Notes under the pieces: generated by a model
What the model was told of the DNA's origin: nothing
The model's input: the letters and a program-made list of their open reading frames with translations, nothing else
The model's database searches: none
Assembly: GCA_963805975.1 (NCBI GenBank)
Contig: CAWDVR010000001.1
Span: 32,001-96,000 of the forward strand
From: an uncultured Acidobacteriota bacterium
Lineage (GTDB): Bacteria; Acidobacteriota; Thermoanaerobaculia; Multivoradales; SZUA-115
Direction of reading: 5' to 3'
DNA: 64,000 bases
Program-made: the position numbers and the translations under genes
Part shown: one piece after another, positions 31,461 through 58,622 of the stretch
How positions within the stretch are numbered: position 1 is the first letter of the stretch
Layout of the letters: each line of letters starts with the position of its first letter

Positions 31461-32588
31461 ATGATGACCCAGACGATCGACCCCACCCCGGACCGGAGAC
31501 CCTTGTTGCAACCCACCCTCGACACGCTCGACGAGGCCCGCTGGCAGGCGGTCGTCGCGCGCGACGCGGCGGCGGACGGACGGTTCGTGACCGCCGTCAA
31601 GACGACCGGCATCTACTGCCGGCCGAGCTGCCCGGCACGGCGGCCGAAGCGGGAGAACGTGGAGTTCTTCCTCACCTGCGGCGAGGCCGAGGCCGCCGGC
31701 TTCCGCGCCTGCCTGCGCTGCCGGCCGGCCGGCGCCCCGCCCGCCGACGAGCGCCTGGCCAAGATCCAGCGCGCCTGCCGGCTGATCGAGCAGGCCGAGG
31801 AGCCGCCGAAGCTGGCCGAGCTGGCGGCCGCGGTGGGCCTCTCGCCCTTCCACCTGCAGCGCAAGTTCCGCGAGGCGGTGGGCGTCTCGCCACGGGTCTA
31901 CTTCGAGTCGCTGCGCCGCAAGCGGCTACAGCAGAGCCTGGAGGCCGGCCGCTCGGTGACCGACGCGCTCTACGAGGCCGGCTTCGGCTCCAGCAGCCGG
32001 CTCTACGACGCCTCGTACGATCTCCTGGGGATGACGCCGTCGCGCTACCGTGCCCGGGCGCCCGGCGAGGTGGTGCAGTGGACGGTGGCCGCCTCGCCGC
32101 TCGGCCGGCTGCTGGTCGCTGCCACGGACAAGGGCGTCTGCCGGATCGAGCTGGGCGACGACCGCGAGGCGCTCGCCCGGCGCATGGAGCAGCTCTTCTC
32201 CGAGGCGCACCTGGTCGAGGGCGGCCCGGAGCTGGCGCGCTGGGTGGAGGAGATCCTCGCCTTCCTGGCCCAGCCGGCAAAGGGCCTCACGCTGCCCCTC
32301 GACATCCGCGGCACGGCCTTCGAGCAGCGGGTGTGGGAGGCGCTACGCCAGATCCCGGTAGGCGAGACGGCGAGCTACGGCGCCGTGGCGCGGGCGCTCG
32401 GCGAGCCGCGCTCGGCGCGGGCGGTGGCGCGCGCCTGCGGCGCCAACCCGGTGGCCCTCGCCGTGCCCTGCCATCGAGTGATCGCGAGCGACGGCTCGTT
32501 GGGCGGGTATCGGTGGGGGGTGGAGCGGAAGCGGAAGCTGCTGGAGCGCGAGGGGGCGGCCGGTGCGCCTGCTATAAACCCGGCATGA
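31461..32588 (+). CDS. ada: Bifunctional transcriptional activator / O6-methylguanine methyltransferase Ada
   Basis: GIYCRPSC...GFRACLRC Zn site, AraC HTH, VPCHRV. Confidence 0.96.
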   Translation: MMTQTIDPTPDRRPLLQPTLDTLDEARWQAVVARDAAADGRFVTAVKTTGIYCRPSCPARRPKRENVEFFLTCGEAEAAGFRACLRCRPAGAPPADERLAKIQRACRLIEQAEEPPKLAELAAAVGLSPFHLQRKFREAVGVSPRVYFESLRRKRLQQSLEAGRSVTDALYEAGFGSSSRLYDASYDLLGMTPSRYRARAPGEVVQWTVAASPLGRLLVAATDKGVCRIELGDDREALARRMEQLFSEAHLVEGGPELARWVEEILAFLAQPAKGLTLPLDIRGTAFEQRVWEALRQIPVGETASYGAVARALGEPRSARAVARACGANPVALAVPCHRVIASDGSLGGYRWGVERKRKLLEREGAAGAPAINPA

Positions 32589-55284: not shown

Positions 55285-55509
55285 ATGCGTACCACTTTGC
55301 AAATCGACGACGACGTGCTCGAGGCTGCCAGGAGCCTCGCCGAGGCCGAGAGGACCCATGTCGGCACGGTGCTGTCGAGGCTTGCTCGCAAGGGGCTGGC
55401 CCCCGGGAGCGCAGGTGGGACGGACCGCGGGTTCCCCGTGTTCGAGGTCCCGCCCGGCGCTCGGCCCCTGACCCTCGAAAAGGTGCGTCAGGCGCTCGAG
55501 GACGACTGA
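55285..55509 (+). CDS. vapB: VapB-type RHH antitoxin
   Basis: MRTTLQIDDDVLEAARSLA...GTVLSRLARKGL. Confidence 0.88.
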   Translation: MRTTLQIDDDVLEAARSLAEAERTHVGTVLSRLARKGLAPGSAGGTDRGFPVFEVPPGARPLTLEKVRQALEDD

Positions 55510-55961
55510 TGGTCGCGCTGCTCGACGTCAACGTGCTCGTAGCTCTGGCCTGGCCCCACCACGTCCACCATGAGCTGGCGCTTGCCTGGTTTCAAGAGAA
55601 TCAGGCCCTGGGTTGGGCCACTTGCCCCACGACCGAGAGCGGCTTCGTCCGCGTCTCCTCCAATCCGCGGGTGCTGCCGGAGGCGAGGTCGCCGCACGAG
55701 GCGGTGCTGATCCTGCGGCGGATCCGTGCGCTCCCCGCGCACGTCTTCTGGTCGGAGGAGGTCTCGATCGCCAGCCAAGAGCTCGTTGCGGCGGAACGGC
55801 TGATGAGCTACCGCCAGGTCACGGATGCTCACCTGCTCGCGGTGACCCTGCACCGCGGCGGGCGGCTCGCCACCCTCGACCGTGCGGTGCGCAATCTGGT
55901 GCCGCCCACCTTTCGTGAGCGAGAACGCGTCGTGGTGATCTCGGACAGCACCGCCCCATGA
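55509..55961 (+). CDS. vapC: VapC PIN-domain toxin
   Basis: LLDVNVLVAL, TCPTTESGFVR, QVTDAHLL, LATLD; TGATG coupling. Confidence 0.92.
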   Translation: MVALLDVNVLVALAWPHHVHHELALAWFQENQALGWATCPTTESGFVRVSSNPRVLPEARSPHEAVLILRRIRALPAHVFWSEEVSIASQELVAAERLMSYRQVTDAHLLAVTLHRGGRLATLDRAVRNLVPPTFRERERVVVISDSTAP

Positions 55962-56332
55962 CCCTCGAATCCTTCATCGCCCGCTGGACGGCGAGCGGGC
56001 AGGCCGAGCGGGCCAACAAGGACTCGTTCCTGAACGAGCTCGCCGACGCGCTGGGCGTCGAGCGGCCGCACCCCAAGACCGGCGATCCGGAGCGCGACCT
56101 CTACGTCTTCGAGAAGGACGTTCCCTGGGCGCGCGCCGAGGGCAGCTCCACCCGCTTCATCGATCTCTACAAGCACGGCTGCTTCGTGCTCGAGGCCAAG
56201 CAGGGCGCGGCCAGCGGCCCCAAGCGGCGCGACACCCCGGCCTGGAATTTGATGATGAGCGAGGCGCACGGCCAGGCGATAGAGGCTACTGAGAACCGGG
56301 TATGCCTGCAAGAGCGGTCGACCAATGCGTAG
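55958..56332 (+). pseudogene. Truncated MmeI-like type IIL restriction-modification enzyme (N-terminal nuclease domain only)
   Basis: FIARW...ERAN...FLNEL..LGV..P, YVFEK.V, FIDLYKHGCFVLEAKQG, A.GQA; homology ends near 56280 where GC falls. Confidence 0.8.
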
Positions 56333-56353
56333 CGTTCTGGCATAGTACGAACT

Positions 56354-57121
56354 ATGGCGCAAGGCTCCTCGATCGAGTGGACCGACGCAACGTGGAACCC
56401 GGTGGTGGGGTGCTCGCCAGTTTCCCCGGGGTGCCTGAACTGCTACGCCGCCCGGATGGCGCTTCGCTTGGCTAGCATGCCGAACAGCGCAGGCCGGAAG
56501 TATAAGGGAACCGTCAGACGGGCGCGTGACGGGAGAGCGGTCTTCTCTGGGCGGATCAAGTCTGCTGAAGAGTCGTTGGATCTCCCGCGGATTTGGCGTC
56601 TGCCGCGAACAATTTTCGTCAACTCGATGAGCGATCTTTTCCACGTCGCTGTACCGCTGGAGTTGATTCAACGAGTTTTCCGAGTGATGAACGAATGCTC
56701 GCGCCACAGGTTCCAGGTGCTGACCAAGCGCCCCGATATCGCCCTGGAATTCTCGGAGCACTTGGAGTGGAGCAACAACATCTGGTTAGGAACCAGTGTC
56801 GAGACGTCCAAGTACTATGGGCGCATCGAGGCACTTCGACGCACTCCGGCGCGTATCCGATTTCTTTCGTGCGAGCCGCTCCTCGGCCCACTGCGAGATC
56901 TGCCATTGGAGGGTATCCACTGGACTATTGTCGGCGGGGAGTCAGGGCCGGGTGCCAGGCCAATGAGGGAAGAGTGGGTGCGGAGCATCCACACTAGGTG
57001 CCGCGAGCATGGAGTGGCCTTCTTCTTTAAGCAGTGGGGAGGAGTCCGGAAGCGAGAGACCGGAAGGGTGCTCGATGGACGCACCTGGGATGAGATGCCG
57101 CTAATAGAGGCGAGCCACTAG
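56354..57121 (+). CDS. DUF5131 / phage Gp37-Gp68 family radical-SAM-like protein
   Basis: SIEWTDATWNPVVGCSPVSPGCLNCYA, FVNSMSDLFH, FQVLTKRP, WLGTSVE, FLSCEPLLGP, VGGESG, FFFKQWGG. Confidence 0.95.
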   Translation: MAQGSSIEWTDATWNPVVGCSPVSPGCLNCYAARMALRLASMPNSAGRKYKGTVRRARDGRAVFSGRIKSAEESLDLPRIWRLPRTIFVNSMSDLFHVAVPLELIQRVFRVMNECSRHRFQVLTKRPDIALEFSEHLEWSNNIWLGTSVETSKYYGRIEALRRTPARIRFLSCEPLLGPLRDLPLEGIHWTIVGGESGPGARPMREEWVRSIHTRCREHGVAFFFKQWGGVRKRETGRVLDGRTWDEMPLIEASH

Positions 57122-58318
57122 ATGCCACACCAGGCGGGAGTGGACTTCTTCAAGGTAAAGAGATCGTGGTCCAGGTACAAAGATTCGATCTTAGCCTACT
57201 ACCTGAAGCCTTATCTAGCCAAGGTTCGCAAGCTAGATCGGCCCATACTGCTTGTTGATCTATTTGCAGGGCCGGGAAAGTTCGAGGATGGCGAGCCAGG
57301 GTCCCCGCTAATAATGCTTGAGGCTGCTGAACCTCTTGCGGTCGCAGGCCACCCAATTCGAGTGCTACTGGTCGAGCGAGACCCAGACCTAGTTGCAAGG
57401 CTGCGCAAGAATACTGCCCCCTATGAGGGGCTCGCAGATGTTCGCCATGCGGACAGCCTCGATTTGATGGAAGAGATAGCCGCTGCCGCCGCGACGAGTA
57501 CGGTGTTCTTGTATGTTGACCCATTTACGATCGGCCGGCTCCACCTCGACCGACTCGCGGCAGTATACTCGAAGATTCGGGATGGCTCGAGCGTAGAATT
57601 ACTTTTTGTCTTCATGGTGCCGATCTTCTTGCGCTGGGCAAGAGCATGTTTGGAGGCAGAGGAGAGCAGTCAGGATGCTCTGGGAGACAGGCTCGTAGTG
57701 GATGAGGCTGGGAATTTTGATTCCATGATGGCGTACGCACTCTGGGATGCCCCGGTCGTTCGAGCCCTAAAGCGCGCAAGAACCTCCGGCGAGGAGCTAG
57801 ACGCGATTGCTGGTGGGACCTACTGGCGGGACTATGTGGAACAACCTCTTACTCCTGAGGTGTACTTGGCTTTCGCCAGACGGTACTGCGACGTGCTGCG
57901 CGGTTGGTTTCCGACGGTATGCATGTTCCCAGTCTATGCCACTGATAGTGCACGCATCCCCAAGTACTGGCTTATTTTTGGTACGAGGTATCGTCCTGCG
58001 TTAGATCTCATCAATCGTGCCACGGCCGAGGCGCGAGCGCGGGAATTTAAGACTTGGGGGGATGGAACTCTGTTCGCTGGGATGGGTGTTCAGCTACCGA
58101 CTCAGCCAGACCTGCGCCGACTGATTGCAGAACAGCTTCGTGGGACCGCTCGGACAGAATGGCGAGAGCTCCGATGGCAGATCAGTGAGCAAGAGCTGGG
58201 TTGGTTTACCGACTCCGCCATTAACGACGGCATCAAGAGACTTCTCAGCGAGGGGAGACTCCGGGGGGCTTTAGGTAAGAAGGTAGAGGAGCGGGCAGTT
58301 CTTGAGTGGGTCGTCTGA
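57122..58318 (+). CDS. tcmP: Three-Cys-motif partner protein TcmP (methyltransferase-like fold)
   Basis: WSRYKDSILAYYL, VDLFAGPG...GSP, FLYVDPF, YWLIFGT; abuts the DUF5131 gene. Confidence 0.85.
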   Translation: MPHQAGVDFFKVKRSWSRYKDSILAYYLKPYLAKVRKLDRPILLVDLFAGPGKFEDGEPGSPLIMLEAAEPLAVAGHPIRVLLVERDPDLVARLRKNTAPYEGLADVRHADSLDLMEEIAAAAATSTVFLYVDPFTIGRLHLDRLAAVYSKIRDGSSVELLFVFMVPIFLRWARACLEAEESSQDALGDRLVVDEAGNFDSMMAYALWDAPVVRALKRARTSGEELDAIAGGTYWRDYVEQPLTPEVYLAFARRYCDVLRGWFPTVCMFPVYATDSARIPKYWLIFGTRYRPALDLINRATAEARAREFKTWGDGTLFAGMGVQLPTQPDLRRLIAEQLRGTARTEWRELRWQISEQELGWFTDSAINDGIKRLLSEGRLRGALGKKVEERAVLEWVV

Positions 58319-58420
58319 CTGCCGTTTCAAGGGCCTGAAGGCCGAAGTGGCCGCTGTGGGAGCGGAGCGGTCTTGGCGACTGGTGAAGTGAGGAGTGACC
58401 GCGCGAGACCATACTTCCCA

Positions 58421-58622
58421 ATGAGCACGGCGGCCATGAGGGATCGAGTTCGTGGTGGATGAGAGCGGCGAGCGACGGGCCGTTCTCATCGACCTGAAGC
58501 GCCACTCTGACCTATGGGAAGACCTCTACGACACCTTGGTAGCGCACCAGCGGCGCGCCGAGCCGAGGGAGTCTCTGGCGGAGGTGAAGCGGAGACTCGC
58601 ACGAGGAGTGCGCTCCTCCTGA
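58421..58622 (+). pseudogene. Frameshifted orphan antitoxin-like small gene
   Basis: Frame 58440-58622 gives GIEFVVDESGERRAVLIDLKRHSDLWEDLYDTLVAHQRRAEPRESLAEVKRRL; ATGs at 58421/58436 are out of frame with it. Confidence 0.55.

Follow-up and report, generated by a model that had tools for sequence, protein, structure and literature searches.

The DNA analysed here is a 64,000-nucleotide stretch (the window; positions 32,001–96,000 of contig CAWDVR010000001.1, assembly GCA_963805975.1, from an uncultured Acidobacteriota bacterium). It contains a two-gene cassette, encoding a DUF5131 protein and a TcmP protein, that lies between the two remaining ends of an MmeI-like type IIG restriction–modification (R-M) gene. 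By composition, the cassette is a foreign, horizontally acquired pair. The reading that we favour, with about even confidence, is that it constitutes a mobile module that would modify DNA bases in two coupled steps and be used in genetic conflict. The pair itself is already catalogued, as TIGR04474 together with PF07505 and as the PADLOC defence candidate PDC-M30/M41. Our literature search, mostly without subscription papers, found no functional study, no phage-protection assay and no description of the DUF5131 reaction. New from this copy are the apparent replacement of a type IIG gene, a subfamily that seems to bring its own promoter, and a set of residue-level comparisons. The features discussed below are as follows, in window coordinates.

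55958–56278, forward strand: left stub of the MmeI-like type IIG gene, approximately codons 1–107 (PF20464 MmeI_N; PADLOC REase_MTase_IIG).
56279–56353, forward strand: leader of the cassette, in which a weak sigma-70 promoter may lie, as predicted from sequence for this copy.
56354–57121, forward strand: DUF5131 (Gp37/Gp68 family), a small radical S-adenosylmethionine (SAM) protein resembling spore photoproduct lyase (SPL); 255 residues, with CX6CX2C at C20, C27 and C30.
57122–58318, forward strand: TcmP (TIGR04474), an RlmJ-like protein of 398 residues with a Rossmann methyltransferase fold. The methyltransferase-fold domain spans approximately residues 1–314 and is marked by K20, D46–G52, G60-S61-P62, E85 and D133-P134; a degenerate clamp-like LF (317–318) lies in the linker, and a probable winged helix covers approximately residues 331–398.
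58323–58391, forward strand: right stub, covering roughly the final 22 codons of that MmeI-like type IIG gene up to its stop, placed by end-anchored alignment.

The two genes are joined at TAG-ATG with no gap and, as the initial annotation stated, are lower in GC than their surroundings: 0.60 for DUF5131 and 0.56 for TcmP, with third-position values of 0.73 and 0.59 versus 0.77–0.95 in the measured flanking genes. The block from 56279 to 58322 (2,044 bp) has a GC content of 0.577; the genome mean is 0.704, and a value this low occurs in 8 of 2,618 genome windows of the same size. Each gene is present once in the 5.36-Mb genome. DUF5131 matches PF07505 with 308.2 bits (cut-off 28.9) and TcmP matches TIGR04474 with 88.9 bits (cut-off 53), and the motifs first picked out by eye are all in place: C20-x6-C27-x2-C30 in DUF5131, and VDLFAGPG (45–52) and DPF (133–135) in TcmP. 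The copy looks intact, because it retains every residue conserved in at least 85% of 222 DUF5131 proteins, except at N44, and all strongly conserved TcmP residues. Neither terminal repeats nor a target duplication were found at the cassette ends, and the adjacent open reading frames (ORFs) scanned include no integrase and no transposase. Among the sequencing runs listed as holding this DNA there was none of RNA; in one DNA run with a small share, two contigs of 150 bp are identical to parts of DUF5131, and these were not used as evidence.

The predicted DUF5131 structure (pLDDT 92) most closely resembles SPL (Z 13.5, root-mean-square deviation 2.9, 196 residues aligned; next match Z 10.9), and its top 18 structure matches are radical-SAM enzymes. 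The third of these is viperin (Z 10.8). CX6CX2C is found in 218 of 222 aligned DUF5131 proteins; C20, C27 and C30 are each conserved in 99% of them and C216 in 96%. With this cysteine triad placed on a modelled partial TIM barrel, DUF5131 is a predicted member of the radical SAM superfamily. Foldseek gave no match at E ≤ 0.001, with RlmN among the weak matches, and single-sequence PDB searches gave nothing significant. RadicalSAM.org assigns SPL to Megacluster-5-3 and DUF5131, with CX6CX2C, to 5-2 (PMC9477430). DUF5131 shares a predicted fold and a megacluster with SPL, and SPL-like proteins can take its place beside TcmP. It differs from SPL in being approximately 90 residues shorter, in being usually partnered by TcmP and in having CX6CX2C in place of CX3CX2C; PF20903 gave no match to the window protein at E ≤ 0.05.

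A further, probable difference concerns the chemistry of the final step. The SPL reaction ends with the hydrogen donor Cys140, and Cys mutants form adducts (PMC3467042). Residues 31–114 of DUF5131, where the SPL donor Cys140/141 would fall, contain no cysteine, with the caveat that the register is not fixed by profile alignment (probability 10.7). The SPL-like proteins linked to TcmP have a glutamate at the donor position; profile alignments between them and DUF5131 were not significant. The 96% conserved C216 of DUF5131 might substitute as the hydrogen donor. These residues bear directly on a role in DNA-damage repair or tolerance, in which DUF5131 would reverse a lesion as SPL does and TcmP would find or flip the lesion at the replication clamp. 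SPL being the best fold match, the pairing of TcmP with close SPL relatives and the clamp-like motif of TcmP homologues (see below) all fit such a role, which we nevertheless consider rather unlikely: the SPL donor cysteine probably has no counterpart in DUF5131 and is replaced by glutamate in the SPL-like partners, and both the patchy, mobile spread (22 of 61 related genomes) and the retained methyltransferase active site fit it poorly.

TcmP is modelled with similar confidence (pLDDT 94), and its best structure match is RlmJ (Z 18.0, root-mean-square deviation 3.0, 219 residues aligned; next unrelated match Z 13.6). RlmJ is the 23S rRNA m6A2030 methyltransferase. A profile of 121 TcmP sequences also matches RlmJ (E 4.5e-4), with motif I, GSP, E85 and D133-P134 aligned. 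TcmP has a class I Rossmann fold with motifs I–III and shares with RlmJ and the DNA N6/N4 amino-methyltransferases the fold itself, motif I, GSP, the motif II Glu, the motif III Asp, the Asp-Pro of motif IV and, probably, the motif X Lys. The SAM-binding and catalytic-position residues are conserved in 94–100% of homologues; D133 is present in 219 of 219 aligned TcmPs and K20 in 217. The initial annotation had likened DPF to motif IV of amino-methyltransferases. The comparison stands for D133-P134, which aligns with RlmJ, and falls short in that the TcmP motif is DP(Y/F) (D133 100%, P134 92%, then Tyr or Phe 69%) and lacks the second proline of DPP(Y/F). K20 aligns with RlmJ K18, the motif X Lys, in a forced global alignment only (probability 30%). 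K18 and D164 are both essential in RlmJ (PMC3814359).

TcmP otherwise departs from RlmJ in lacking its 45-residue insert, along with the second proline of DPPY, and in adding a clamp-like linker and a putative winged helix. The proposed C-terminal winged helix can be carried forward as a lead from the model, which has three helices and strands in this region, together with weak profile matches to the winged helices of MCM4, Z-alpha and RPA32 (E 0.01–1) and PF22560 GMT-wHTH clusters (feature score 0.93–0.94). TcmPs of at most 330 residues (81 of 218) mostly lack it. The consensus sliding-clamp motif is QLxLF (PMC4549789), and QxxLF occurs in 57 of 182 non-redundant TcmPs versus approximately 12 in shuffled sequences. 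A related, clamp-like pattern is present within the final 12 residues in 17 of 67 short TcmPs (7 of 326 neighbouring ORFs); among 110 long TcmPs, 37 have it in the linker (8 of 326). These additions matter for the choice of substrate. Both by fold and by profile, TcmP matches RlmJ best, and the weak Foldseek matches of DUF5131 include RlmN, as expected if TcmP methylated an rRNA or tRNA adenine that DUF5131 then elaborated by RlmN/Cfr- or TYW1-type chemistry. We regard RNA modification of this kind as improbable, as the clamp-like motif, the probable winged helix, the DNA methyltransferase and R-M neighbours and the position of SPL as the nearest radical-SAM structure point to DNA.

The wide co-occurrence of the two families that was claimed at the outset is borne out. 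In 72 of 80 GTDB loci, TcmP and DUF5131 are no more than 2.5 kb apart, with two of the eight misses at contig edges, and of 80 viral loci fetched around DUF5131, 62 also contain TcmP. Conversely, DUF5131 adjoins TcmP in 59 of 80 TcmP-anchored metagenome loci. Fifteen of the 21 TcmP loci that lack DUF5131 were inspected, and 12 of these have a CX3CX2C radical-SAM gene next door. A profile of nine such TcmP-linked proteins matches SPL structures (E 8e-26), and the two tested match PF20903. One TcmP partner (L191:327-1226) combines CX3CX2C with a DUF5131-like WNP..GC start and a weak PF07505 match (E 1.7e-9), and on these sequence features bridges the DUF5131 and SPL families. DUF5131 is very common in both bacteria and phages (all 7,998 scored candidates passed), and one of the loci analysed, L073, is archaeal. 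On one viral contig (L283:3-4244), DUF5131 lies at the end of an open frame that exceeds 1,400 codons, a possible large fusion.

The window copy shares with the catalogued pair both families, their adjacency, a common strand and CX6CX2C. Its gene order, DUF5131 followed by TcmP, is the minority arrangement in GTDB (TcmP is first in 64 and DUF5131 in 5 of 72 pairs) and the rule in its own TcmP subfamily (DUF5131 first in 54 of 59 pairs). Viral pairs (L270–L334) show a third arrangement, being convergent with touching 3′ ends in 25 of 48 cases; integrases or recombinases lie near 8 of the 48 and CI-like repressors near 6. Pfam scans here covered 48 of 62 TcmP-bearing viral loci, after short and redundant ones were dropped, and 17 of 18 TcmP-less viral loci. 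DUF5131 identity is 64–76% over the best 119 matches, and TcmP identity is mostly 28–61%.

This uneven conservation is what would be expected of a fixed small substrate and a variable sensor. In a sensor–effector defence, TcmP would sense DNA or the clamp, and DUF5131 would make a toxic or chain-terminating nucleotide or cofactor product, as viperins do, aborting infection. The rank of viperin among the fold matches, the viral tail-to-tail pairs with their integrase and repressor neighbours, and the fact that such a system needs no nuclease are all in keeping with this scheme. SPL is nevertheless clearly the better fold match (13.5 versus 10.8), and TcmP keeps its SAM-binding and catalytic-position residues to a degree beyond what a pseudo-enzyme needs, leaving sensor–effector defence unlikely.

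The site of insertion is recorded in the flanking stubs. The left stub is approximately 70% identical to intact type IIG proteins of 1,127–1,129 residues in relatives, and DNA similarity ends near 56278. Its frame, a 124-codon ORF, continues through the foreign DNA to a stop at 56332. The right stub begins four bases past the TcmP stop, and its end-anchored alignment to three intact type IIG C-termini scores 101, compared with a next-best score of 76.5 among 30,000 22-mers sampled from the 84,176 stop-terminated 22-mers of the genome, the start point and gap costs having been chosen after the match was seen. As the block lies between the N- and C-terminal stubs of one gene, the cassette likely replaced approximately 3 kb of it, which we infer as the simplest history. 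Both stubs would derive from a single MmeI-like enzyme that has lost approximately 1,000 of approximately 1,130 codons, and the cassette is unrelated to it in sequence. The missing middle was found nowhere else in the genome, and no intact gene combining restriction and methyltransferase domains remains at the locus. The stretch with a second, distant MmeI-like type IIG gene (G000:C4:281101-283752; 23–28% identity) contains one open frame of 960 codons and, separately, one of 246 codons.

Two other small elements border this site. A VapBC-type toxin–antitoxin pair (55285–55961), with a VapB-like protein of 74 residues and a PIN-domain protein matching TIGR00028 at 127.8 bits, overlaps the start of the left stub; a second PIN gene is on contig C3. 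Downstream, a RelB-like antitoxin ORF (58421–58622) matches PF18506 below the cut-off (E 0.023); beyond its first codons the frame appears shifted by 1 base, due to decay or an assembly error. No partner toxin was seen for it among the ORFs scanned.

The leader contains a candidate promoter, with a −35-like element at 56318–56323, a 17-nt spacer and a TG-extended −10-like element at 56341–56346, 7 nt 5′ of the ATG; by this spacing, translation from 56354 is likely leaderless. The promoter scanner returned no promoters, the window candidate falling below its threshold, and no forward-strand terminators. Relatives of the same order have a TTG..-N15–19-TA...T site within 90 nt upstream in 19 of 26 cases, versus 1.6 in shuffled sequences. 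An initial lead to regulation by LexA, GTTC-N7-GTAC at 56334–56348, was rejected, as the pattern has 35 copies in the genome and none at lexA or recA. The host lexA and recA leaders contain no GTTC-N7-GTTC box, and the host's true LexA box was not found. Five LexA-box or palindrome patterns, which may not be those of the host, were compared with the 26 same-order upstream regions; four matched none and one matched two, and no LexA box shared across this TcmP subfamily was found there. The near absence of such boxes is a further point against repair. A unique 6-bp palindrome over the start (56341–56356) was also set aside, since it was not found in the 26 relatives.

The annotation had placed the pair within an R-M locus. 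In place of an R-M system, the flanks carry two short remnants of a single dead type IIG gene, and the idea that the pair is an accessory part of a local MmeI-like system is largely refuted and, in our estimate, very improbable. The pair does occupy the footprint of the type IIG gene, and R-M genes flank 8 of 59 GTDB loci. However, the middle of that gene is gone, same-order cassettes bring their own promoter, and neither DUF5131 nor TcmP occurs at any of five intact type IIG loci of relatives (15–16 kb fetched). The cassette is probably a self-contained unit outside any R-M system, because the type IIG gene is in stubs, the pair is absent from the intact loci, its spread is patchy and it has promoter-like sites of its own. 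DUF5131 was not found in the single same-genus genome searched.

Defence genes are nevertheless enriched around the pair when loci are compared with control regions. Of 59 GTDB loci, 19 have a PADLOC match (E ≤ 1e-20) no more than two genes away, versus 2 of 31 controls (p 0.008, approximately 5-fold), and 8 have an R-M gene at that distance, versus 0 of 31 (p 0.047). A pooled R-M count of 14 of 98 was discarded because it took in a DISARM stub. The loci are those of 80 with at least 1.5 kb on both sides. The controls are 31 of 40 regions from eight genomes of the host's order, without matching to the phyla of the test loci, and related loci do not count as independent. Genes were called by a longest-ORF rule in the test loci and by a codon model in the controls, so that the counts for the test loci are lower bounds, the former rule being crude. 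Generic matches among the neighbours include two SNF2 helicases and three partial matches. This enrichment is genuine, though of moderate size, and is like that of cargo in insertion hotspots. In the window's TcmP subfamily, 8 of 39 metagenome loci have a PADLOC match and 5 have an R-M gene (39 of 80 loci were scanned, being the 44 with at least 2.5 kb on one side minus 5 near-duplicates). Four of these five R-M cases carry an SPL-like partner in place of DUF5131. TcmP with an SPL-like partner lies directly behind type IIG or Mod-type methyltransferase genes at L137, L145, L157 and L172 (four of seven such loci scanned), a much higher rate than for pairs with DUF5131, and is possibly a distinct R-M-linked variant. 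At L064:615-8077, the pair is truly embedded: hsdR and hsdS of a type I R-M locus stand on either side of it, and a Septu-like PtuA follows that locus.

DUF5131 genes without TcmP are found beside other enzymes. A DNA methyltransferase lies within two genes at 7 of 29 such loci and, among viral loci, at 4 of 17 without TcmP versus 2 of 48 with it (p 0.036). N6/N4 or C5 DNA methyltransferases adjoin TcmP-less DUF5131 at L029:5235-8795, L102, L292, L329 and L332. At L063, the neighbour is instead a pair of radical SAM and DUF4130 genes, which we take to be an SOS-linked repair cassette and which would favour the repair role.

The relation to the PADLOC candidates is close for one component and partial for the other. 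DUF5131 matches the models of PDC-M41B (E 5e-104) and PDC-M30B (E 8e-97), and TcmP matches M30A in part (residues 15–74, E 7e-9 to 1.5e-4) and M41A not at all; these are the E-values of the hidden Markov models themselves. PDCs are computational candidates, defined by their embedding in BREX, DISARM or type I R-M loci and offered for future tests (Payne et al., 10.1101/2024.01.29.577857). The main text of that paper names neither M30 nor M41. The window pair differs from these candidates in having apparently replaced a type IIG gene, whereas PDCs sit between intact R-M genes. Table 1 of PMC12445080 lists a TcmP gene, SMa2243, next to the hna defence gene SMa2245 and up-regulated approximately 2-fold; this paper and PMC12429752 mention TcmP as table entries.

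Taken at its full extent, the two-step DNA modification that we favour would proceed as follows. TcmP would bind DNA through its winged helix, in many homologues also through the sliding clamp, and flip a base. Through the RlmJ-like K20/D133 pair, an exocyclic amine, N6 of adenine or N4 of cytosine, would then receive a group from SAM, most probably a methyl. DUF5131 would bind a [4Fe-4S] cluster through C20, C27 and C30 and cleave SAM to a 5′-deoxyadenosyl radical, which would act on the same flipped or methylated base. With no cysteine in DUF5131 at the likely donor place of SPL, the base radical would form a new bond and not be restored. The modified base would either protect the carrier's own DNA from restriction or harm foreign DNA during its replication. 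Choice of target would fall to TcmP, which evolves fast, and chemistry that does not vary to DUF5131, which is highly conserved.

The role in nucleic-acid modification or defence that the annotation proposed therefore survives in part. Modification is supported by the SPL- and RlmJ-like folds, the conserved catalytic-position residues, the clamp-like motif of homologues and the methyltransferase neighbours. Defence is plausible: PADLOC lists the pair as a candidate, and its surroundings are enriched in defence genes. The argument from R-M position is weak, because the R-M gene is destroyed, the cassette seems self-promoted and an R-M neighbour is found in only 1 of 32 DUF5131-type loci of the subfamily.

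That last count also weighs against two-step DNA modification itself, together with several other observations. The closest fold to TcmP is that of an rRNA methylator, its motif IV is one proline short of the DPP(Y/F) of RlmJ and DNA m6A methyltransferases, and the correspondence of K20 with K18 depends on a forced alignment. The window TcmP has LF without the clamp-motif Gln, and the motif is found in only 8 of 50 members of its subfamily. The register of DUF5131 against SPL at the donor position is the one left unfixed by profile alignment. No PADLOC neighbour is found at 40 of the 59 GTDB loci, and the contrast in methyltransferase neighbours may only reflect phage early regions. Finally, the cassette lacks a nuclease, so that marking host DNA would not by itself block a phage.

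A more specific form of two-step modification, which we put forward tentatively, is a DNA hypermodification pathway. A clamp-riding amino-methyltransferase would mark newly replicated DNA, and an SPL-derived radical-SAM enzyme lacking the repair cysteine would make from the methylated base a cross-link or a new base, giving a nuclease-free restriction shield or a means of crippling phage DNA that can take over an R-M site. The locus itself is a clean case of one conflict cassette apparently displacing another, and this copy is intact and compact (2 kb), with precise mutable sites (C20/C27/C30, C216, K20, D133 and the LF linker). If the pair does modify DNA, radical chemistry on a methylated base would join the known DNA modifications, and the family would offer a nuclease-free route to defence or anti-restriction.

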